Below, in pieces: positions 11,692 to 64,000 of a DNA stretch of 64,000 nucleotides. Numbering within the stretch: position 1 is the stretch's first letter; the number at the start of each line of letters is the position of its first letter. The stretch is from an uncultured Bacilli bacterium (lineage in GTDB: Bacteria; Bacillota_I; Bacilli_A; RF39; UBA660): the NCBI GenBank assembly GCA_947629255.1, contig CANRDF010000001.1, forward strand, positions 758 to 64,757, given 5' to 3'. Under the pieces are notes generated by a model that was not told where the DNA came from, searched no databases, and worked only from the letters and a program-made list of their open reading frames with translations. A program made the translations under genes and the position numbers.

Positions 11692-12158
11692 GGGTCTTCA
11701 CCTCCTTTCAAGGTTTTGATAAGAATTTCCATAAGGCTTTTCTTATCTTCAATTAAAGTAACATCAATCGTTTCTTTATCGTAAAACTCAAGTTTAGGAA
11801 TTTCTAAAGAAACGGTTTCATAAGCGACATTTTGGATCACTTCTATACTTCCAAATTCTTTGACTTTCAAAGAATATTTTTTTGATTTGATCCATAATTC
11901 ATTACTTTCTTTTAAATTTTTTGCATGAGAATATGGCATCAAAACTTTTAAAGTACAATCATTCTTCTTACATTCATATAAACCTTGCAAAGGAATTGTT
12001 TCTTCAATTTTGTAGAAGAACAAAAGACTAATACAAAAAAGAAATAAAAGTAAGAAAAAAATTAAAAATTTTAACTTTGTTTTTTGATGTAACAAGGCAT
12101 ATATGTTATACTGTGGATTTTTTGTTTGCAAATGTAATCTTCCTTTCAAATAAATCAC
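11688..12158 (-). CDS. membrane-anchored small protein of the bacteriocin operon (possible accessory/immunity)
   Basis: 156 aa with one N-terminal TM. Overlaps the transporter 3-prime end and peptide 1 start (translational coupling). Confidence 0.45.
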   Translation of the reverse strand: MIYLKGRLHLQTKNPQYNIYALLHQKTKLKFLIFFLLLFLFCISLLFFYKIEETIPLQGLYECKKNDCTLKVLMPYSHAKNLKESNELWIKSKKYSLKVKEFGSIEVIQNVAYETVSLEIPKLEFYDKETIDVTLIEDKKSLMEILIKTLKGGEDP

Positions 12159-14145
12159 TATGATCTTTATGACTAATATAAATAACGGTTTTCCCCTTTA
12201 ACAATTTTCGAATTCCCCCAATAATCTTCACTTCCATCGAATCTTCCACTTCACTTAAAACTTCATCGAGTAAATAAACACTTCCCTCTTTCATTAGAGC
12301 CCGAGCAAGTAATATTCTTTGTCTTTCTCCACCAGACAAGGAAGAATCATTAATGAATGATGCATAACGAAGAGGCTTTTTACTTACAATCGATTCAATC
12401 TCACAAGCCCGACAAACCTCATCAAAATGTTTACCTTTTTCACTACCCATTAAAATATTATCTTCAATAGTTCCCGCGACAAAAGACTCGTTTTGACTTA
12501 AGTAAATGACGGAAGAACGAATCTCAGACAAAGTATAATCTTCTAAATCTTTTTCTAAAAAAGTAATTTTTCCCATATAATCCGTAAGTTCTCGATGCAA
12601 AATTTTACACAAAGTACTTTTTCCACATCCACTCGGTCCATCTAAGAAGACATGTTCTTTCGCTTTCACTTTAAAACTAAAATCAACAATACTTTCTTTG
12701 ACATCATTATAAGAATAACTAATATGTTTTCCTTCAATACTTGGAACAGGAATCACTGATGTAGTCTTCACTTCTTCTTCCTTAAGTTCCATCGTTTCAC
12801 TTAATTTTGAAAGAATCCCTTTCATATAGTAAAATCTTGGCAATAAATCTGTAAGTTCTTTTAAAGGATTTATAAAATACAAATATAAACTTTGAAATAA
12901 AAGAAAATCATAAATAGTTAAAATGTTATCTTTCACTAAAATCATTCCATATGTCATTAAAAGAAAGAACAAGATTTCTAAAAAGTTTTCCCTGATAAAA
13001 TCAATCACAAAAGCATGACTTTTTTCTTTCGTATTTAAAATCACGGTTTCACAAAGACGTTCTTCCATGGTTTGAATCGAGTATTCTGTTAAATTTAAGT
13101 TTTTCATACTCGGATAAAGTTTGATTTTTTCCATAATAAATTCATTCCATTTAGTATTATTTTCCATTAAATGTTTTATAATTTTATAGTAATACCTTGA
13201 AGTAAGAGAACTAATGACACAGTAAAGAAACATACCAAGAACGACAACCAGAGTGAGATGATAATCTAAGAAAAACAAAAGAACTAACGAAGAAATACCA
13301 AGAATTCCTTCAAGAAAAAATGTTATACAAATCTGAATAAATAAGTCTTTTACATTTTTTGCTTCTTCAATTCTTGTAATGATATCTCCTTCATGAAAGC
13401 TTTGAAATTTTGGCATGGGAAGTTTTAATAAATGAGAAACAAATGAATAAAGATAAGTTACTTCTACATTTCGATTTAGTTTCAATTCCATTTTTCCTTT
13501 TCCATAAGTAAAAATACATTTGAGAATTGTAAATCCTAAAAAGATTCCAACAAAAAGCCAAAACTGTTGATTCGAAAACAAAGGAGTATATTCCATTCCA
13601 ATTTTTAAATAAAAACTCGAAAGAATCGAAAGAACAGAAATCATAAGACTTAAGAAAACAATGACAAAAATATTTTTCTTTTCTCTTTTAACAATCTCCA
13701 TCACATGTTTTAAAACACTTTTCTCTTTTGGAATTCTAGGAATATAAGTTCTTGGAATGGCCACTAAAACTATGCCATCCCATATGGTTTGTAATTCTTT
13801 CTTTAAAACTTCTCTTTTTCCAGAAGACGGATCCATAATCGTTACACTTTTTTCACTAATTTTAGTTAAAACAACAAAGTGCTGCATTCCATTTGGTAAT
13901 ACAAAATGAAGAATGGCTGGAAGCGGAATTTCTTTTAAATGATTCATATCACTTTTTTCGCCAAAAGAATCAAATTGATATTTCTTTAACGTTTCCACTA
14001 AATGATAAGCAGTCGTTCCATTCTGATCAGTATAAGTATCTTCTTTTAATTTTTCAATAGGCACATATCCATGATAAAACTCTATAATATAGAGAAGACA
14101 TGTTACTCCACAATCTCTAAAATCTCGTTGTACAATCGACTTCAT
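12106..14145 (-). CDS. bacteriocin ABC exporter with N-terminal C39 peptidase domain
   Basis: C39 catalytic Cys (RDCGVTC) and His (HFVVL). Six-TM region, Walker A GPSGCGKST, LSGGERQR signature, LLDE Walker B. Confidence 0.88.
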   Translation of the reverse strand: MKSIVQRDFRDCGVTCLLYIIEFYHGYVPIEKLKEDTYTDQNGTTAYHLVETLKKYQFDSFGEKSDMNHLKEIPLPAILHFVLPNGMQHFVVLTKISEKSVTIMDPSSGKREVLKKELQTIWDGIVLVAIPRTYIPRIPKEKSVLKHVMEIVKREKKNIFVIVFLSLMISVLSILSSFYLKIGMEYTPLFSNQQFWLFVGIFLGFTILKCIFTYGKGKMELKLNRNVEVTYLYSFVSHLLKLPMPKFQSFHEGDIITRIEEAKNVKDLFIQICITFFLEGILGISSLVLLFFLDYHLTLVVVLGMFLYCVISSLTSRYYYKIIKHLMENNTKWNEFIMEKIKLYPSMKNLNLTEYSIQTMEERLCETVILNTKEKSHAFVIDFIRENFLEILFFLLMTYGMILVKDNILTIYDFLLFQSLYLYFINPLKELTDLLPRFYYMKGILSKLSETMELKEEEVKTTSVIPVPSIEGKHISYSYNDVKESIVDFSFKVKAKEHVFLDGPSGCGKSTLCKILHRELTDYMGKITFLEKDLEDYTLSEIRSSVIYLSQNESFVAGTIEDNILMGSEKGKHFDEVCRACEIESIVSKKPLRYASFINDSSLSGGERQRILLARALMKEGSVYLLDEVLSEVEDSMEVKIIGGIRKLLKGKTVIYISHKDHSDLFERKITFANKKSTV

Positions 14146-36614: not shown

Positions 36615-39248
36615 TTATTTTTTAATAAGTTTTCTTACTTGAACTTCCTCTTTATCTAAAATAATTGCATTCGTTAAATCAAATTTTTCATTAACTCTAG
36701 GATCATCACTTAATATGACACGGCAACCTGATAAATTGCCTTTTGTCTTTATTAATTCTAATTTAGGATGCTTAATTTTATTTAAATCAATAAACGCATA
36801 AGTTTTTCTTAAATTGGCCCCATTTATATTAACATCTGTAAAATCTTTACCACTTAAGTCTAAACCTTCCAAATTACAACTTCTTAAACTACGAAAACTG
36901 ATTTTTTGAGGGTCAATATGAGCATTCGTTCCTTTTAAATTAGCGCCCTCTAGGTAAAAGTGTCCAAAATCTATTTTACTTAAATCTAAATTTTCAAAAT
37001 TGGTATATGATAAATCCCAATCACAACTCTCCTCTATAGTTAGTATATTTATATGAGCACTTGTATTTTTTAAATTGGCCCCGGTAATACAAACATCTTT
37101 AAAATCTGCTTTAGATAAATCAAGTCCTTCTAAATTAGTACCTTCTAAACTTTTTTCACACACTTTTTGAGGATTAATATGAGCATTCGTTCCTGATAAG
37201 TTTGCACATTTTATCTCACAGCCCGAAAAATTTTTGGAAGCCATAGGAACATTCCTCAGATTTACATCTATTAAACATTTTTTAAAAACACACTGTGGAT
37301 CTATATTTACAAGTGTATTTACAAAACTTGCACCTTTTATCATCGTATGATTAAAATTTGCTTTTTGAAGATTACAACCTTCTAAATTACAGTTTTCTAC
37401 TGAATTTTTTGCAAGCGTTTGAGGATTGATAGGAGCATGAGTATTTTTTAAATTCGTATTTTTTAAAATGGCTCTTGAAAAATCAGATTTTGATAAATCA
37501 AGTCCTTCAAAGTTACAATCTGTAAAATTTTTATAACGCATCTCTTTTGGATCAATATGAGCATTTGTTCCTTTTAATTTTGTTTTATATAGTTTTATTT
37601 TTGAAAAATCCACATTCGATAAATCTATATCTGTAAAATCAACTTCCGAAAAATCTTGTTGAAGAGCTTTTTCCATCCCAATTTTTTGAATAATGATTTC
37701 TTTTTTATCAGCATAACTTGCAAAAAGTAAATTAGGACAAGTTGGAGTTAAAATACATTTTCCGTCACAAAAAACAAAAAAATCTTCTGTATAAGGATTT
37801 TGCATGATAAAACAATTTTCTATATTGCTTTTTACATCATGATTGATAAATACTTCTCCTGGCACTATGTAAGCAAACGTATCTTTTAAATTTGTTTCTT
37901 CTAAATATACCCCTGCAAAGGACACATGGGATAAGTCTAAGCCTTCTAAATTGCATCTTCCTAAACTTTTATTAAGAATTTTTTGAGGATCAATATGTGC
38001 ATTTGTTCCTTTTAAGTTTGCACCTCTTATTTGTACATCTGTAAAATCAGCTTCTGATAAATCAAGGCCTTCTAAATTGCAGTCTTTTAAACTTTGTCCT
38101 ACCACTTTTTGTGGATCTATATGAGATCCAGTTCCTTTTAGATTAGATCCTTCTATATCACAACCTGTGAAATCTTTACCACTTAAGTCTAAGCCTTCAA
38201 GATTAGCATAAGATAGTCTTTTATTTTCAATCGTTTGAGGATCAATGTGTGCACCCGTGTCTTTTAAATTTGCCATTTCTATTTCACAACCAGTGAAATC
38301 TTGCCCACTTAAGTCTAAGCCTTCAAGTTTTGCCAAAGCTAGACTTTTTCCTGCAATCGTTTGAGTATTAATATGTGCCCCTGTATTTCTTAAATTAGCT
38401 CCTACGATCCCAACATCTGTAAAATCTACAGTAGATAAATCTATACCGCTTAAATCTGTATATTCAAAATTTTTGCTGTTAGCTTTTTCTATTCCAATTC
38501 TTTGAATGACTTCTTCTTTCGCTTTTCCTAAATAAGAAAGTGGTCTTAGTCGAAGCTGAATTTGTTTTACTTTCTTCCAAATTGATGTATAAAAAATACT
38601 TTTCTCTTCGATTACTTCCACTTTTGTTTCTTTTTCTTCGATAGAAATTATATCTTGTTTGGTAGAAAAAAGATAATCTTCTAAAATAGTCTCTAATGTA
38701 TAATTTTCTAAATGTGCTGGTAAAGAAAGAAGACTTGATTTTCCATAACTTTGAATACTTTCTATTAAATATGGAAATTTTTTTAAATCTTGATAATAAT
38801 TTATATATTCTTCCTTGTCTTCTTGATAATCTTTCATAATTTTTTTAAGAAGCAAATTGTGAAAACGCATATAAATATCTTTTTGAAGATTCATATTTCC
38901 AAAAGTTAAGACTATTTTTTCTAATTTGCTTTCGATAATATCAAATTTTTCTAAATTCACATCTAAATTCCAATCTTCAGTTAAATGAATAAGTTCTAAA
39001 AATAAAATATAAATTTCTAAATCCATTTCTAGTTTCATGAGTTCTACAGATAGCTCTGTTTCTGGATTTCCATAGTGATTTAGAACTAAACTTCCTTCTT
39101 TTTGTTCTTGTTCTTTTTTTAATTTATAACTCGAAATCAACAAATCTAATTTCTTACTTTCTTTTTCAAGCGAAACAGAGTATGTTTTTAATTCTTCTAT
39201 CACTGTTTTTAAATACTCGATTTTATTGATATTTTCCATTTGTAACAT
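36615..39248 (-). CDS. pentapeptide-repeat protein with N-terminal coiled-coil domain (paralog 1)
   Basis: Start MLQMENINKIEY with RBS GGGAGG. More than 15 copies of the 40-aa unit CNLEGLDLSxxDFTxxxIxGANLKGTNAHIDPQK. Conserved C-terminus GCRVILSDDPRVNEKFDLTNAIILD. Confidence 0.7.
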   Translation of the reverse strand: MLQMENINKIEYLKTVIEELKTYSVSLEKESKKLDLLISSYKLKKEQEQKEGSLVLNHYGNPETELSVELMKLEMDLEIYILFLELIHLTEDWNLDVNLEKFDIIESKLEKIVLTFGNMNLQKDIYMRFHNLLLKKIMKDYQEDKEEYINYYQDLKKFPYLIESIQSYGKSSLLSLPAHLENYTLETILEDYLFSTKQDIISIEEKETKVEVIEEKSIFYTSIWKKVKQIQLRLRPLSYLGKAKEEVIQRIGIEKANSKNFEYTDLSGIDLSTVDFTDVGIVGANLRNTGAHINTQTIAGKSLALAKLEGLDLSGQDFTGCEIEMANLKDTGAHIDPQTIENKRLSYANLEGLDLSGKDFTGCDIEGSNLKGTGSHIDPQKVVGQSLKDCNLEGLDLSEADFTDVQIRGANLKGTNAHIDPQKILNKSLGRCNLEGLDLSHVSFAGVYLEETNLKDTFAYIVPGEVFINHDVKSNIENCFIMQNPYTEDFFVFCDGKCILTPTCPNLLFASYADKKEIIIQKIGMEKALQQDFSEVDFTDIDLSNVDFSKIKLYKTKLKGTNAHIDPKEMRYKNFTDCNFEGLDLSKSDFSRAILKNTNLKNTHAPINPQTLAKNSVENCNLEGCNLQKANFNHTMIKGASFVNTLVNIDPQCVFKKCLIDVNLRNVPMASKNFSGCEIKCANLSGTNAHINPQKVCEKSLEGTNLEGLDLSKADFKDVCITGANLKNTSAHINILTIEESCDWDLSYTNFENLDLSKIDFGHFYLEGANLKGTNAHIDPQKISFRSLRSCNLEGLDLSGKDFTDVNINGANLRKTYAFIDLNKIKHPKLELIKTKGNLSGCRVILSDDPRVNEKFDLTNAIILDKEEVQVRKLIKK

Positions 39249-39299
39249 AAGAAGACCTCCCTGCAAGCTTATTATAACAAAGTACCATAAATTTTCAAT

Positions 39300-40264: not shown

Positions 40265-42196
40265 TTATTTAATCATTTTTTCAATTGAGCTTTCATTTAA
40301 AATCGTTGCATTTGTTAAATCAAATTTTTCATTGATTAAAGGATTATCATTTAATATGATACGGCATCCCGACAAATCTCCTTTTTTCGTTAAATATTTT
40401 AATGTTTCATAACAATAACGAATTTTATTTAAGTCAATGAAAGCATTTGTTTCTCTTAAATTAGCTCCGTATATAGAACAATATGTAAAATCTGCACTAG
40501 ACAAATCAAGGCCTTCTAAATTACAATAATCTAAAATTTTTCCTTGAACTTTTTGAGGGTCAATATGAGCATTGGTTCCTTTTAAATTGGCTCCACCTAT
40601 ATAACATTTTGTAAAATCTTGACTACTTAAGTCAAACCCTTCAAAATTGACACCAGATAGATTTTTCTCCTTAATGGTTTGAAGATCAATATGAGCATTT
40701 GTACCTTTTAGATTGGCTCCTGATATATCACAATCCGTAAAATCGGCATTTGACAAATCAAGTCCTTCTAAGTTACAATTTCTTAAACTTTTCTCTTCCA
40801 CTTTTTGAGGATCAATATGTGCATTGGTTCCTTTTAGATTAGCTGCTCGTATAGTACAGTCGGTAAAATCTTGACTATTTAAATCTAAGTTTTCGAGATC
40901 GGTATGGTATAAATTTTTTCGTTTCACAGTTTGCGGATTAATATGTGCTCCGGTATTTTTTAAATTAGCTTTTGAGATGTCAACATCTGTAAAATCCGCA
41001 CTCGACAAATCAAGCCCTTCTAAGTTACAACCTTCTAAACATTTCCATTTTGCTTTTTGTGGATCTATATGAGCATTTGTACCTTTTAAATTTGCTCCCA
41101 TAATCTCACAACCCGTAAAATCCTGATGGCTTAGCTCTAATCCTTCAAAATTGACTTCAATTAATCTTTTCAGAGCAATAGTTTGAGGATCAATAAAAAC
41201 TTTGGCATTTTTTAAATTAACTCCTTCTATATAAACACCTGTAAAATCCGCATTAGAGAGATCTAAACCTTCTAAATTGCATCTTCTTAAATCTTTATTA
41301 TAAATTTTTTGAGGATTAATACGCGCAGATGTATTACTTAAATCACAACGAAAAATCCATGCATCAGTAAAGTCTACAGTAGATAAATCAATACCACTTA
41401 AATCTGCATCTCTAAAATGTTTTGATTTTGCTCTTTCTACTCCAACTCTTTCAATAACTGCTTCTTTTGCTTTTCTTAAATAAGCAAGTGGAATCATTTC
41501 AGATTGAATTCTTTTTAATGTGCTCCTAAACGAAGTATGAGTAGAACTCTTTTCTTCTTTCACTTCGACTTTCGTCTCTTTTTCTTCAATAGAGATGATT
41601 TCTTGCTTAGTAGAACAAAGATAGTCTTCTAATATAGTCTCTAATGTATAATTTTCTAAATGTTCTGGTAAAGAAAGAAAATTTGCTTTTCCATAACTTT
41701 GAATACTCTCTATTAAGTATGGAAATTTTTTTAAATCTTGATAGTAATTTATATATTCTTCTTTTTCTTCTTGATAATCTTGAATGATTTTTTTAAGAAG
41801 CAAATTATGATAACGTTTATAAATCTCTTTTTGAAGATCCATATCCCCAAAAGTTAAAACAAGCTTTTCTAGTTTGTTTTCAATAATATCAAATTTTTCT
41901 AAATTCACATCTAAATTCCAATCTTCTGTTAAATGAATCAGTTCTAAAAATAAAATATAAATTTCTAAATCCATTTCTATTTTCATGAGTTCTACAGATA
42001 ACTCTGTTTCTGGATTTGCATAAGAACTTAAAACCAAACTTCCTTCTTTTTGTTCTTGTTCTTTTTTTAATTTGTAATTTGAAATTAATAAATCTAATTT
42101 TTGACTTTCCTTTTCGAGTGAAATAGAATATGCTTTTAATTCTTCTATCACTTTTTTTAAATATTCTATTTTATTTATATTTTCCATTTGTAACAT
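40265..42196 (-). CDS. pentapeptide-repeat protein with N-terminal coiled-coil domain (paralog 2)
   Basis: N-terminal ~230 aa nearly identical to paralog 1. Same 40-aa super-repeats and C-terminus. Confidence 0.7.
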   Translation of the reverse strand: MLQMENINKIEYLKKVIEELKAYSISLEKESQKLDLLISNYKLKKEQEQKEGSLVLSSYANPETELSVELMKIEMDLEIYILFLELIHLTEDWNLDVNLEKFDIIENKLEKLVLTFGDMDLQKEIYKRYHNLLLKKIIQDYQEEKEEYINYYQDLKKFPYLIESIQSYGKANFLSLPEHLENYTLETILEDYLCSTKQEIISIEEKETKVEVKEEKSSTHTSFRSTLKRIQSEMIPLAYLRKAKEAVIERVGVERAKSKHFRDADLSGIDLSTVDFTDAWIFRCDLSNTSARINPQKIYNKDLRRCNLEGLDLSNADFTGVYIEGVNLKNAKVFIDPQTIALKRLIEVNFEGLELSHQDFTGCEIMGANLKGTNAHIDPQKAKWKCLEGCNLEGLDLSSADFTDVDISKANLKNTGAHINPQTVKRKNLYHTDLENLDLNSQDFTDCTIRAANLKGTNAHIDPQKVEEKSLRNCNLEGLDLSNADFTDCDISGANLKGTNAHIDLQTIKEKNLSGVNFEGFDLSSQDFTKCYIGGANLKGTNAHIDPQKVQGKILDYCNLEGLDLSSADFTYCSIYGANLRETNAFIDLNKIRYCYETLKYLTKKGDLSGCRIILNDNPLINEKFDLTNATILNESSIEKMIK

Positions 42197-58017: not shown

Positions 58018-58920
58018 TTATAGTGATTTCTTATAAGCGACATCTAATATGTTTTCTTTACGATACTGAATTGATTTTTTTAAATATTCTTTCTTCTTAT
58101 CAGACAAAATAGACATTTCATCAATTAATTTAAATATTGTCTCTAAATGAATTTTAGGTACAATTCGAAGCACAGCTTGATTTAATTCTTCTATATTTTT
58201 CTGATAAAACTGTTTGTACGTTAGTTTTTCTCCTTTATATTTATAAATAGGATGAATATTATAAGCAACATCTTTAAAAAAAGGTTCTTCCTCTAATGCT
58301 CTTTCAATATCACTTTCACTTAATAAAGGATTTAAAGAAGATCCACAGTCATAGACAGGGGCAAAAGAAAGATTATTCTCTTTTAAAAGAAATCCCCAGT
58401 TAGAAAGATGGCGATCTGTATTGCCAATTAATGTATCGACCACAAACATATTCCAAAAACTATCCTTGATTTGAGAGATATTCACTTGAAAGGAACTTGA
58501 TAAACTTTTTAATACATCATAAATATCATTTATATCTGTGGTAAAGTGCCTATCCATATTCGTGATGCTATTTGATAAAGAAGAAAATTCAATTAATTTT
58601 GTTTTTTCATCTGTAAAGTCTTTACAAGCAACCACGTTCTTTTCTTTCCATAAAGATTTAGAATCCATTGGTTCTATATATTTTCCTAGTAAAACCTCTT
58701 GAACATCTATTCCAATTTCTTTAAATATTTTGCATCCTAAGTACTCAGAATCAATATTATTCACATAAGATAAACTTACGTTTTTTTCACGAACAGGGTC
58801 TGGAAATTTTAATAAATAGACTTCTCCCTTATAAAAGATTTTCTTCTTTTTCTCTGAACCACCATAATCACAAAACAATTCTTTAGAATTAGTAAAATCT
58901 ATCATACAATTAACCCCCAA
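58018..58920 (-). CDS. HipA-like serine/threonine kinase domain protein (short, HipT-like size)
   Basis: Catalytic-loop-like NTDRHLSNWGFLL and APVYDCGSS match HipA C-terminal motifs. 300 aa. Confidence 0.55.
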   Translation of the reverse strand: MGVNCMIDFTNSKELFCDYGGSEKKKKIFYKGEVYLLKFPDPVREKNVSLSYVNNIDSEYLGCKIFKEIGIDVQEVLLGKYIEPMDSKSLWKEKNVVACKDFTDEKTKLIEFSSLSNSITNMDRHFTTDINDIYDVLKSLSSSFQVNISQIKDSFWNMFVVDTLIGNTDRHLSNWGFLLKENNLSFAPVYDCGSSLNPLLSESDIERALEEEPFFKDVAYNIHPIYKYKGEKLTYKQFYQKNIEELNQAVLRIVPKIHLETIFKLIDEMSILSDKKKEYLKKSIQYRKENILDVAYKKSL

Positions 58921-59192
58921 AAGAAATTTTTTAATTCTTCATTTTTTGCTGAGGATAGCTCCCCTGTTACTACTTCGGCTTTCATTGAAATACATAAATC
59001 ATAAATGGCTTGTTTCAATTGATAATACAATGCACTATCTTCTTCATTTAATTTATAATCTCTATTTTTTCTTTTTACATTTTCTATATCTTGTTTAATC
59101 CATTTGGAAAGATTGGAATTTAAATATTCTTCTATTTGTTTTTCTTCTTTTTCTAAGCGCATTTTACTCACTTCCTTGCTTGCATTATACAA
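58902..59192 (-). CDS. small protein overlapping the HipA-like gene (candidate partner/antitoxin)
   Basis: 96 aa, charged. 19-nt overlap with the kinase start. Confidence 0.35.
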   Translation of the reverse strand: MYNASKEVSKMRLEKEEKQIEEYLNSNLSKWIKQDIENVKRKNRDYKLNEEDSALYYQLKQAIYDLCISMKAEVVTGELSSAKNEELKNFFWGLIV

Positions 59193-59951: not shown

Positions 59952-60614
59952 TTACTTACATCTTTTTAAAATGTTTTTTTCTTGATTATCTTTGATCATT
60001 AAGAAATCAAAACAGTTAGGATACATATTTTCAACAATCGTTTCATAAGAAAAAGTACAATCTATTTGACGATCTCCCAATTTATTTGGATTTGCTACAT
60101 AAAATTCATGGTTTTTGAGATTTACGCTTGTAATCCCAATATAATGTCCTCCATTTGAAAATGTTTTCAGATACGTTTCTTTCCAAGGACCCACACAAAC
60201 CATAGCCATATATTCATTTTTTATCATATCAAAAACCAGTTCTTTTTTTAATTCTGGATGCTCATAGCTTAGTTTAATTAATTTATAACTTACATTACAT
60301 ATTTGTTCTTCATTCAAACGTTGTAACAGATAAATAAAAGCAATATCTCTTGTTCCCAATCGATTCATTGTTCTATCATTATAAAAATCCATTGGATATC
60401 CATATTCATCTAAAAGCATTTTTTTTGCAATATCCTCAGGTGTTAAATTATAGCCTAAACTTGATAAAATGGTAGCCATAGTTGTCGGTCCACATCCATG
60501 AGAATCGATTCGCCAATCTTTTATATTTTCTAATCCTCCATATGTATATTGTTTATATCGTATTGTTTCTTTTCTACCAAATTCATTTTTTGATATCACA
60601 TCATAATGTGTCAT
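59952..60614 (-). CDS. C39-like (Peptidase_C39_2) cysteine peptidase domain protein
   Basis: HGCGPTTMATILSSLGY motif. Start MTHYDV with RBS AAAGGGTGAG. ATGA overlap with the upstream NlpC/P60 stop. Confidence 0.6.
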   Translation of the reverse strand: MTHYDVISKNEFGRKETIRYKQYTYGGLENIKDWRIDSHGCGPTTMATILSSLGYNLTPEDIAKKMLLDEYGYPMDFYNDRTMNRLGTRDIAFIYLLQRLNEEQICNVSYKLIKLSYEHPELKKELVFDMIKNEYMAMVCVGPWKETYLKTFSNGGHYIGITSVNLKNHEFYVANPNKLGDRQIDCTFSYETIVENMYPNCFDFLMIKDNQEKNILKRCK

Positions 60615-61124
60615 TTTCTCACCCTTTCTAAAATATAAGAATCGGCAAAAATATCTTTGTAACCGACAAGTACTTTTTGCCAATATTCATTTTTATTAAA
60701 ATCACTCACCACAACTTTCCCTTTTACTCTTGAACTATGAATAAATACAGAATTTTCTAAATAAATGCCACAGTGTCCAGGATATTTGTTATCTTCTTTG
60801 GGTGCAAAGTCATTTAAAGATTGACGATGAAAAAATAAAATATCGCCTTTTTGAATATGTTCTATTTCTTTTAAAGAACTTGCTTCATCAAATAAAATGT
60901 TTTTTCCAATGGAACTTGTCATAATTTTGGTGGTCGTTGAAAGCCCATATCCATTTTCATAAATATTTATATTTAAGACTTCATGATAAACATACCAAAT
61001 GAGACCTGCGCAGTCAAAAGTATCTGCACCATGCTTGTTATGCTCATATTGTTTATAATGTTGTAATAAAGCAAGCTTTACTATTTGATTTCTTAATTCT
61101 ATTTCTAAATTATCTGTTTTTCAT
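60611..61124 (-). pseudogene. NlpC/P60 (C40) peptidase gene with a frameshift in the A5 tract after the start codon
   Basis: Catalytic DCAGLIWYVY and HCGIYLENSVFIHS are in one frame with no start codon. ATG AAA AAC AGA TAA is offset by 1 nt. Confidence 0.55.
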
Positions 61125-61325
61125 CACTCCTACTCTTTTTTATTTTTAATAAAAACAATGAAATTTTAATTTATGATAGAAGACAAGAATACACTTTTTC
61201 ATGGGAATCACCTTCTAAAACTATTACAGATACTTTATCACATTATTTTTGAAAGTCAATGATTTCTATTTGGAGTTACTACATGTCATGCTGTTTAATA
61301 TTTTTATTGTGTATATTACGTTAAA

Positions 61326-61362
61326 AATTAAAAAAGACTGACGCACCATAGTGCTTGTCAGT
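61326..61362 (-). terminator. terminator downstream of the AAA+ ATPase gene
   Basis: ACTGAC-N14-GTCAGT followed by a U-run on the minus strand. Confidence 0.5.
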
Positions 61363-61475
61363 TCTGAACTTCAATAACATTTTATCCTATTTATTATGTT
61401 TTGACAAATATTTTTAGACCACATATTTTAAATCGTCATATTTTTTCATATATTTGAATATTATTTTTTATCAGA

Positions 61476-63347
61476 TTATTTCTTCTCTAATACTCTTTTT
61501 CTTTCTGCAAGTCTTGCTTCTGCGATTAATTCTAATCTTGATTCGTCATCACGAGTCCATAATGTATCAAATATGGCTACAAACTCTGCACCTAGTTTTT
61601 CTATAAAGCTTCTTACTTTCTCCATATTTTCTTCATCAACTTGAGATAGTCCCGTTGTGGTTGCATATCTTGAAGCTGTATTTAGAGATTGGACATATTT
61701 CTCGTTATAGTTTCCACTTAGGACATCTTCTAATGTGATCACTTCTTGATTACAAAACTCTACAAACTCTTTTGTAATATCTTCTCCTACTAAGGCTCTT
61801 AACATTTCTGGATTTTTTGTTTGATATAACATTTTTGATGCCATTTCCCATTTCCTTGGATCTGCATTTGGTTTTTCTCCATCATATTTACTTCTTAAGG
61901 TTTCTCCTTTTTTATAAGCAATGTAAGCATATATCGCTGGATGTATATGATGTTCACTTGCCCATTTTAACCAATTTTCTGTTGTTGTTTTGATATATAC
62001 ATGGGCAAACCGATTAAATAATGGTTCTGCTAATTGATTTGCTGATAAGGAATCTTTCATCTCATTTCCTGCGGCTACAATTCTTGCATTTTCTGGTAAT
62101 TTCCATATCCCATTCACTTCTTTATCTAATATGATATTAAAAGCTATTCCTTGAATACTTGGTAAAGCATTTGTAAGTTCATCAAAGAAAACAATATGGA
62201 GTTTATCGGGTTCTGCTTCACATTTTGCTTCTAATTTTTTTAACCATGTTGGTTTTACATCAATCATTTCTCCTTTTTCAGAATTATAAACACTTTTTCC
62301 ATTTAAGCTGTCTGGTGTTGCATTTCTTAAATAAATAATTGTACTATCAGGATCTATTTGTTTTACTCTTGCACTTTTTCCTTCGCTAGATGGTCCATGT
62401 AAAAATACAGCTACTCCACTTTCAATAGCTCCTTTTATAATATCTTCTTCACTCACTTGTTTAAAATTTAATCCATAAGGATTTCTTCTTTTTTCAATTT
62501 TTATTTGTTCCTCTTTTAAAGACACATTTTGAAATAAATCTTTTACCATATATTTATTTAAATATGTATACATTTCTGTTTTTTTAAAATCACCATTATA
62601 TTTTTTATCAGGTGTATGAAATCTGATTCCACCCAAAATTCCTCTTTTGCATATTAAAGTTTTTGATTTATCATCAATTAACCATCTAACAGGAGAAACT
62701 TCTACCCAAACATGATCTCCATTTTTATATTCTTCCCCGTTTGATAATAGGAAATCAGTTCCCTTATAACTAGTATAATTAGATCTTGCTTGAACTCTAA
62801 TAAATTTGTGTCCTCTGTATTCGTATTCATCATAAATAACAGATTGAAAAGATTGGTGACCATCATCATAATCTGCTGAATCAAAAGTATAATTTCTACC
62901 TGTTTTTTGTATATTGTTATTTTGATATTCTTGTTCTAATAATTTTTGTACTTTAGCCATTGGAACACATTGAGGATATTCTCCAAATTCAACTTCTTCA
63001 CATCCATTATAACCCTTCACTCTGTTTTCAAAAATTGAGTCAAAGATTACAGAGTTTTTTATAACTGGACGAATACAATTAATACGTGACTCTCGAGACA
63101 CAGCGTATCTTTTTCCATTGCTACCCACGCCATAAACATCACCTTCATTATCGGAAGACCGTGTATAATACCGACAAGTACGACATCTATAAGTATCAGT
63201 ATCATTCCAAGCGCCACCCGTTAAAATTACTAAATCTGTGATGAGTGACATAGTTCCATATTTTTTTAAAACATCTAATTGTTTGTCTCCCCAAATTTCT
63301 TCTTCAGAAAGTAAAGTTAATTCTACATCAGAATTCATACAACCCAC
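61476..63347 (-). CDS. AAA+ ATPase (AAA_5/MoxR-like core) with a large N-terminal Cys-rich domain
   Basis: Walker A GPSSEGKS and Walker B HIVFFDELTNA. N-terminal 300 aa contain CRTCRYY. Confidence 0.6.
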   Translation of the reverse strand: MGCMNSDVELTLLSEEEIWGDKQLDVLKKYGTMSLITDLVILTGGAWNDTDTYRCRTCRYYTRSSDNEGDVYGVGSNGKRYAVSRESRINCIRPVIKNSVIFDSIFENRVKGYNGCEEVEFGEYPQCVPMAKVQKLLEQEYQNNNIQKTGRNYTFDSADYDDGHQSFQSVIYDEYEYRGHKFIRVQARSNYTSYKGTDFLLSNGEEYKNGDHVWVEVSPVRWLIDDKSKTLICKRGILGGIRFHTPDKKYNGDFKKTEMYTYLNKYMVKDLFQNVSLKEEQIKIEKRRNPYGLNFKQVSEEDIIKGAIESGVAVFLHGPSSEGKSARVKQIDPDSTIIYLRNATPDSLNGKSVYNSEKGEMIDVKPTWLKKLEAKCEAEPDKLHIVFFDELTNALPSIQGIAFNIILDKEVNGIWKLPENARIVAAGNEMKDSLSANQLAEPLFNRFAHVYIKTTTENWLKWASEHHIHPAIYAYIAYKKGETLRSKYDGEKPNADPRKWEMASKMLYQTKNPEMLRALVGEDITKEFVEFCNQEVITLEDVLSGNYNEKYVQSLNTASRYATTTGLSQVDEENMEKVRSFIEKLGAEFVAIFDTLWTRDDESRLELIAEARLAERKRVLEKK

Positions 63348-63365
63348 CCTTCTATTTTTTTATCA

Positions 63366-64000
63366 TTATTTTTTTCTTTGATATAACATATCATGATTAA
63401 GAGAATATAATTTATCTAATTGTTCTTTATTTATTTGTATTACTTTTCCACCTTTAGGATGAATTTTCCTTACTCCAAAAACAATCCAAATCACATCCAT
63501 AGGAATATCAGGCATATTTGCCCATCCATCGGTAAATATGATCTTATTTTCTACTCTTCTAGTAAATGCTCGAACTGCTACATTAAAGTCAGTTCCTCCT
63601 CCACCTTCAAATTTCATATTTTCAATATCTTCTTCCGTTCTTATTTCATGAAATCCATAAAACTCTGTATCAAAACAACCAACTTTTACTTTTGAATGTT
63701 GTAAGATATTTTTACATTCTCTTAAAAAATTCTTAAGTAATAATTCATCTATTGATCCACTTGTATCTAAGACAATTTCTGTTTCTGGTCTAGGTTGTTC
63801 TTCTAAGTTCGCACTTACAACACCATCTTCAATATACGCATTTTTGTAAGACCAATCAACATCAAATTGAATTGCTTCTCTTAAAACATATCTCCAATCA
63901 ATAATTGGTTTAGATTTTCCTATATCATTTATGATTCTTTGTTCTCTATTCGTAGATGTTCCAGCTTCCATTACTTGCTCTATTAAAACTTGTTTTAATG
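63366..64000 (-). CDS. von Willebrand factor A (vWA) domain protein, N-terminus beyond window
   Basis: MIDAS DTSGS...GGGTD motif. The ORF runs open to the window edge. Confidence 0.6.
   Translation of the reverse strand, partial: LKQVLIEQVMEAGTSTNREQRIINDIGKSKPIIDWRYVLREAIQFDVDWSYKNAYIEDGVVSANLEEQPRPETEIVLDTSGSIDELLLKNFLRECKNILQHSKVKVGCFDTEFYGFHEIRTEEDIENMKFEGGGGTDFNVAVRAFTRRVENKIIFTDGWANMPDIPMDVIWIVFGVRKIHPKGGKVIQINKEQLDKLYSLNHDMLYQRKK

Follow-up and report, generated by a model that had tools for sequence, protein, structure and literature searches.

To our knowledge, bacterial chromosomes hold very few +1 recoding sites, and that of prfB is the only widespread one. The compensation in translation of indels fixed in the DNA is a recognised class of frameshifting (Atkins et al. 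2016, PMC5009743); an example is given by the G-run mutants of herpesvirus thymidine kinase, in which the indel is tolerated because low-level shifting gives enough product, while the protein made without a shift is of no use. Restarts following an early nonsense or frameshift mutation are classical in lacI and T4 rIIB. Reinitiation is effective only across very short distances (Huber et al. 2023, PMC10666635). In this work we have analysed a window of 64,000 nt of chromosomal DNA from an uncultured gut Bacilli bacterium (29.6% GC, genetic code 11, with genes for RecD2, PBP2B and an MMPL transporter), in which the gene of an NlpC/P60 (C40) peptidase, here called P60, lies one base out of frame with its sole canonical start. 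Our results indicate that this gene is probably neither dead nor a switch but is read by an unusual translation step, since non-standard translation is implied when a +1 indel close to the start has become fixed and the gene still evolves like that of a working enzyme.

On the minus strand, the start region of P60 reads AGGAGTG ATG AAA AAC AGA TAA TTT. As described in the initial annotation, the only start is that of ATG AAA AAC AGA TAA, one base out of the catalytic frame: the ATG (61124-61122) opens a 0-frame mini-ORF of four codons, MKNR* (61110-61124, minus strand), which ends at the TAA at 61112-61110 and, base 61121 excepted, is identical across the 14 ingroup contigs considered below. 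The catalytic frame (60611-61120, minus strand; 169 codons plus TGA, Pfam PF00877) follows the stops TGA 61126-61124 and TGA 61123-61121, continues with AAA(61120) ACA GAT AAT TTA GAA and stays open to the TGA at 60613-60611. Its first in-frame ATG, GTG or TTG is Met68 (60920-60922, minus strand), located 3' of the catalytic Cys of the DCAGLIW motif. The statement that the frame containing DCAGLIWYVY and HCGIYLENSVFIHS has no start codon is correct for ATG, GTG and TTG before Met68, and for these alone, because an in-frame ATA at codon 7 (61100-61102, minus strand) is a start codon permitted by table 11. This near-cognate triplet, a candidate reinitiation codon, lies 7 nt past the stop of the mini-ORF, directly precedes a conserved ELR motif and is invariant in the ingroup and in its sister lineage.

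Removal of one A from 61121-61117 restores the reading frame, in agreement with the initial annotation, and yields a protein of 170 aa that begins MKTDNLEIELRN and matches Pfam PF00877 (NLPC_P60) over residues 25-155 (E=1.8e-15; 57.2 bits vs a cutoff of 23). In an alignment of 24 sequences C38 (FDCAG), H117 (PGHCGIY) and H129 (FIH) are invariant, and the Cys codon shows a synonymous TGC/TGT polymorphism within the lineage. Sequence matches in the PDB were obtained with LytE (8i2d, 1.5e-6) and MepS/Spr, and by similarity to LytE and MepS the product is a putative peptidoglycan endopeptidase-type enzyme. P60 shares with B. subtilis LytE and E. coli MepS the NlpC/P60 catalytic domain and the conserved Cys-His-His positions; unlike them, it is a single 170-aa domain, in which inspection revealed neither a signal peptide nor a wall-binding repeat, and it is paired with a cytoplasmic-looking Peptidase_C39_2 protein and has a micro-ORF in front.

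The partner gene, C39_2 (59952-60614, minus strand; 220 aa), has its own Shine-Dalgarno (SD) sequence, AAAGGGTGAG, and matches Pfam PF13529 over residues 37-177 (38.1 bits vs a cutoff of 24); it received no NCBIfam, PHROG or PADLOC name, and inspection of its sequence revealed no signal peptide. Its start overlaps the stop of P60 in the ATGA at 60614-60611 (minus strand), so that the overlap with a C39-like peptidase is confirmed, the partner being Peptidase_C39_2. The product does not qualify as a bacteriocin-processing C39 peptidase proper, a type that is fused to an ABC exporter or works with one and acts on a double-glycine leader substrate, as it is a stand-alone protein. The sole peptidase-domain ABC transporter in the window lies about 46 kb away (12106-14145, minus strand); it is a true-C39 bacteriocin-type exporter of the Mbov_0121 family, unlinked to C39_2. 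The C40 and C39 pairing, previously called unusual, is real. It is confined to a subclade, C39_2 adjoining P60 only in the members of the micro-ORF subclade L005 and L009, at 72-74% identity, and in the sister L037, with a degraded copy in L007, and it is absent from most loci of the family.

The initial annotation had proposed a comparison with related genomes, and this showed the extra base to be fixed in the lineage and the sister to be intact. The ingroup consists of 14 other contigs (L001-L004 and L039-L048), which represent 12 haplotypes and 12 or more samples, have an nt identity of 96.5% or above and were taken from many ENA analyses, three Logan runs and one DRA run. All 14 carry the extra base and the length of the A tract never differs. 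Base 61121 is polymorphic, being A in 10 sequences and C in 4 (ATG CAA AAC AGA TAA). The sister lineage L037/L038 (88.7% nt identity, protein P0126) reads GGAGTG ATG AAA AAA GAT AAT. Compared with the sister and the family, which reads ATT AAA GCA/ACA GAT, the base is extra in the A5 run at 61117-61121 (minus strand; AAA|ACA), after the third codon (GGAGTG ATG AAA [A] ACA GAT AAT), and the N-termini MIKTD and IKTDNL (P0064, P0104) identify AAA ACA GAT as the ancestral reading. Since the extra base is shared by all the ingroup contigs and the sister is intact, the insertion is real and derived, and it has reached fixation in a clade of species level. The indel is also older than the diversity that surrounds it, because common polymorphisms flank it at 12-40 nt on both sides. 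A sequencing error in the A tract, the event that was to refute the initial annotation, or an error of assembly in the window record is refuted: the single-base nature of the lesion is all that speaks for it, and the same lesion recurs in assemblies of SPAdes, MEGAHIT and Logan type that were made independently from many samples and in at least two studies.

Every public gene call for the lineage is a fragment of 103 aa that lacks the catalytic Cys, the near-identical database proteins being only calls from Met68 (P0054, P0090 and cluster members). Many database calls of the family are likewise N-terminally truncated, and together these calls mean that annotation pipelines systematically mis-describe a selected gene family. 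A scan of JGI metagenomes gave no close relatives, and the best match in a scan of GTDB genomes, where the species of the window is not represented, was 64% identical.

The A5 run had also been viewed as the site of a phase switch, in which slipped-strand changes would turn P60 on and off. P60, a gene of the surface or cell-wall type, resembles the phase-variable contingency genes in that a short run of A close to its 5' end holds a frame change of one base. Loss of one A restores the frame, and the sister has an in-frame A6 run. However, contingency loci are built on tracts of about 7 or more units, and a homopolymer as short as 5 is not hypermutable; the tract of P60 is too short, interrupted in 4 of the 14 contigs (CAAAA) and also broken by C61116, and its length differs in none of them. 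Phase variation is consequently very improbable.

We classified all the polymorphism inside the frameshift-bearing clade by its codon effect. The start-less N-terminal part (66 codons, 61120-60923) contains 9 synonymous and 6 non-synonymous changes (pN/pS 0.16), none of them at a second codon position, with no stops and no indels, and the C-terminal 103 codons contain 15 and 11, respectively (pN/pS 0.17). For the whole gene (24 synonymous, 17 non-synonymous) a spectrum-matched permutation gave p<5e-5; for the N-terminal part alone, with the observed mutation types placed at random positions, p was 0.002 and the probability of finding no stop 0.06. When the same sites are read in the other two frames, pN/pS rises to 0.6-1.7 and stops are included. 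Pairwise diversity in the N-terminal part is 0.0086 for piN and 0.072 for piS, with an upstream intergenic pi of 0.051, piN thus being 6-8 times below the other two; P60 has no indels, and the upstream spacer has suffered about 6 indel events. C39_2 shows 36 synonymous and 15 non-synonymous changes and one stop in the ingroup (pN/pS 0.10). Codon-level purifying selection on a part that has no canonical start, inside the frameshifted lineage, speaks against a disabled gene, and we consider it quite likely that P60 is still selected and translated. The initial interpretation, in which the gene was disabled or phase-switched, was mostly wrong.

Could P60 nevertheless have been inactivated in the ancestor of the lineage, the apparent constraint being due to recency or to recombination with functional alleles? 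The catalytic Cys has no canonical route of translation, and the population is recombining, as shown by the C allele at 61121, found on two different backgrounds, and by L048, whose C39_2 resembles that of the sister; some polymorphisms could therefore come from unsampled intact alleles. The operon partner is broken by the nonsense mutation K150* in L001 and L002 (locus position 1407, window 60167) and is split by a frameshift in L047 (960-1623), a contig with 2.5x coverage; since the two K150* contigs also carry C at 61121, the CAA haplotype may be decaying. The Pro of HGPDTFDC, usually conserved, is A, S or P inside the lineage, and mid-gene frameshifts occur in the family members L024 and L026. 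Yet the unreachable part is as constrained as the remainder of the gene, an intact allele, which might serve as donor, is absent from all 14 sampled strains, polymorphisms lie close to the indel on both flanks, and amino-acid replacements derived with respect to the family consensus are not in excess, with 6 in the frameshifted clade vs 11 in the intact sister. Taken together, these data make a pseudogene unlikely.

How, then, is the catalytic frame reached? Because of the one-base insertion after codon 3, ribosomes that start at ATG 61124 are in the wrong frame. We propose that the fixed +1 indel is compensated in translation by an early +1 ribosomal shift, a reading to which, on the sequence evidence, we assign a probability of about 0.4, and by which the enzyme would still be made at a low level. 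With fMet on the AUG and codon 2 (AAA or CAA) entering the P site, the ribosome would skip one A and read on from AAA(61120) ACA GAU into the MKTDNLEIELRN product, and ribosomes ending P60 would couple into C39_2 through the ATGA overlap. The shift would be favoured by the transition from initiation to elongation, where +1 slips are commonest, and by a GGAG that precedes the shift codon by only 5 nt, an arrangement that resembles that of prfB. It has been shown that the ribosome is most +1-prone at the second codon (PMC6335274). The SD-like AGGAGTGAT (61123-61131, minus strand) abuts or overlaps the GTG/ATG start; its GGAG ends 2 nt before the ATG and 5 nt before codon 2, and 1 nt in front of codon 2 there is a GUGAU. 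In all 14 contigs the frameshift has been kept while the downstream frame is under purifying selection (pN/pS 0.16-0.17), at a depth that is only that of a species.

As in prfB, a short 0-frame ORF meets a stop a few codons after its start, a +1 shift is needed, the +1 frame encodes a conserved protein, an SD-like element precedes the shift codon by a few nt, and re-pairing in the P site is possible (AAA_A in the window variant). P60 differs from prfB in several respects: at the candidate shift codon the A site does not hold the stop, the GGAG spacing is 5 nt instead of 3 nt, the SD is the initiation signal of the gene itself, the shift would take place at codon 2-3, there is no evident autoregulatory logic, and the site is limited to one species-level lineage and one independent case. 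Compared with the thymidine kinase mutants, which it resembles in tolerating an indel in the DNA, P60 lacks a long homopolymer, and its case is known from population genetics alone. Re-pairing at AAA_A is possible in 10 of the 14 sequences, but CAA_A, present in the other 4, re-pairs poorly; a simple tRNA-Lys slip fails for these variants because CAA cannot re-pair cleanly as AAA does. A slow A-site codon is missing in the window, where the A-site codon is AAC, not rare in tRNA terms and decoded by the same tRNA as AAT, and the stop comes two codons further; UAAU is a strong terminator, which counts against the shift. No stimulatory RNA structure was found, the 5' region folding no better than shuffled sequences (z=-0.6); this same fold, and a search of 60500-61600 in which no Rfam family came near threshold, led us to reject a cis-regulatory RNA.

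The database homologues of P60 are proteins of 160-175 aa, 55-67% identical, that start MIK(A/T)(N/D)..ELR.KIIKLALLQ. Their start region, compared at 27 GTDB loci from MAGs of uncultured gut Bacilli, Tenericutes and Erysipelotrichaceae, is strongly conserved as GGAGTG ATT AAA GCA (A/G)AT, its nucleotide conservation (ATT, GCA) being above what coding alone requires. The motif GGAGTGAT is conserved across the family and, judged by its sequence contexts, is a bona fide Shine-Dalgarno sequence: in L016 it is the normal SD of the micro-ORF, with a 4-nt spacing, and in L052 that of the P60 ATG, with a 6-nt spacing. In most members a GTG start overlaps the SD and ATT lies 2 nt further. There is no ATG, GTG or TTG at the start region in L009 (GGAGGG ATT), L018 (GCG ATT), L053 (GGGGGAG ATT) or L016, the last of which has neither a canonical start nor the ATT. 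P60 begins at an ATG near residue 4-5 in L052 and at a TTG at residue 11 in L053; in L049 (~1450-1500) codon 3 has become nonsense (GTG TTT TAA) and a new ATG is found 12 codons downstream, at residue 15. These alternative starts imply that the N-terminal residues, about 14 in number, are dispensable. Separately, the rumen-MAG homologues in L024 (3001-3508) and L026 (3001-3488) are split mid-gene by frameshifts, either because the assemblies are wrong or because these are true pseudogenes.

A second, independent +1 base occupies the same alignment column in L050/L051 (~1440-1500), two nearly identical loci from two studies that read GGAG UG AUC AAC [C] GCA AAU ACA and whose 0 frame closes after nine codons; as in the window lineage, 5 nt separate the SD from the candidate shift codon. 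The 0-frame A-site codon that follows AAC is CGC, used 0.3 times per 1000 in the long ORFs of the window and the rarest codon examined, and a rare codon in the A site is the classical hungry-codon arrangement for +1 shifting. The L050 lineage shows no diversity. A hop between Asn codons (AAC to AAU, +7 nt) is geometrically possible in both lineages; we know of no precedent for such a hop without an adjacent stop. In a wider and rather doubtful form of the proposal, the SD fused to the start (GGAGUG AUU AAA) would make early ribosomes shift +1 efficiently at codon 3 throughout the family, in which canonical start codons are dispensable time and again, and for this reason no fewer than two independent insertions, that of the window lineage and that of L050/L051, would have become fixed at that column. 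If this were true, it would be a start-proximal, SD-driven recoding site of a kind not described before; the shift might keep the amount of a potentially lytic enzyme very low, and may be tied to the upstream micro-ORF.

The variable starts bear as well on termination-reinitiation, in which ribosomes would end the MKNR mini-ORF at the UAA (61112-61110) and restart at the AUA 7 nt on (61102-61100) to give (M)ELRNQIVKLALLQ, shorter by about 6 dispensable residues. The ATA is in frame, invariant and just 5' of the ELR motif; the starts of L049, L052 and L053 argue for a dispensable N-terminus, ATT seems to serve as the start in L009, L018 and L053, and the A/C polymorphism at 61121 would be silent in such a model. 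As in the restart systems of lacI and T4 rIIB, a very short ORF ends a few nt before an in-frame near-cognate codon, the 7-nt gap fitting the short range of restart (Huber et al. 2023, PMC10666635), and the ATGA overlap of P60 and C39_2 is the standard coupling arrangement. In contrast to those systems, the restart codon of P60 would be AUA, a very weak initiator, with no SD at a suitable distance. The model leaves without explanation why two independent insertions fell in the same column, and as ATA is frequent among the codons of a genome with 30% GC its presence may be due to chance. We find reinitiation, the main functional rival of the shift, rather unlikely, and we retain the early +1 shift as our preferred reading. 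P60 is a natural case at codons 2-3 with population-genetic support for function and with a second independent occurrence at the same position, and both cases would offer a tractable system to study how the reading frame is maintained at the transition from initiation to elongation, and the role of SD spacing.

Other readings were tried and rejected. Under genetic code 4, with TGA as a sense codon, the catalytic frame gains only GAG TGA TGA up to a TAG and no start, and the long ORFs of the window have no in-frame TGA and use TGG. A -1 shift leads into a frame that hits a TAG. Transcriptional slippage needs a run of roughly 8-9 nt, far above the A4/A5 runs present here. The window holds no second copy of P60 from which a paralogue could have converted the gene. 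Phage origin was discarded as there are no IMG/VR relatives and the PHROG matches are only to generic tail-lysin domains, and a role as a defence system as PADLOC gave no match for P60, C39_2 or the neighbour of 209 aa.

The transcript that carries these genes probably starts at a promoter-like TTGACT-16-TAAAGT with a TG extension (61232-61259, minus strand), assigned by consensus match only; along it the order would be micro-ORF, P60, C39_2 and the gene of the 209-aa protein. The micro-ORF (61146-61202, minus strand) encodes the 18-aa peptide MKKCILVFYHKLKFHCFY behind a canonical SD, GAAGGTGAT, at 61215-61207. A micro-ORF stands just 5' of P60 also in L005, L007, L009, L014, L016 and L037, and the consensus M[KR]KCI..YH[HKQ]LKF[DNHQ]C (18-21 aa) is maintained with synonymous codon changes across seven lineages; possible roles are those of a leader peptide, an arrest peptide or a small Cys/His peptide. 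By eye only, and with no call from the terminator scan, a hairpin and a T-run can be seen at about 61365-61326.

Immediately upstream of the operon lies a MoxR/VWA-like pair, formed by a VWA-like DUF2201 protein and, following it, a 623-aa protein (61476-63971, minus strand) with a C-terminal AAA ATPase (PHROG 1297, 3.7e-50) and an N-terminal region of 300 aa. A HipA_C-like kinase of 300 aa (58018-58920, minus strand) gave a match in PADLOC to PDC-M03A, a candidate defence family (1.5e-32). The gene begins within the last bases of an upstream 96-aa ORF (58902-59192, minus strand), with which it may form a toxin-antitoxin or defence pair. Elsewhere in the window, two very large pentapeptide-repeat proteins of 883 and 643 aa are encoded at 36615-39266 and 40265-42196 (minus strand).
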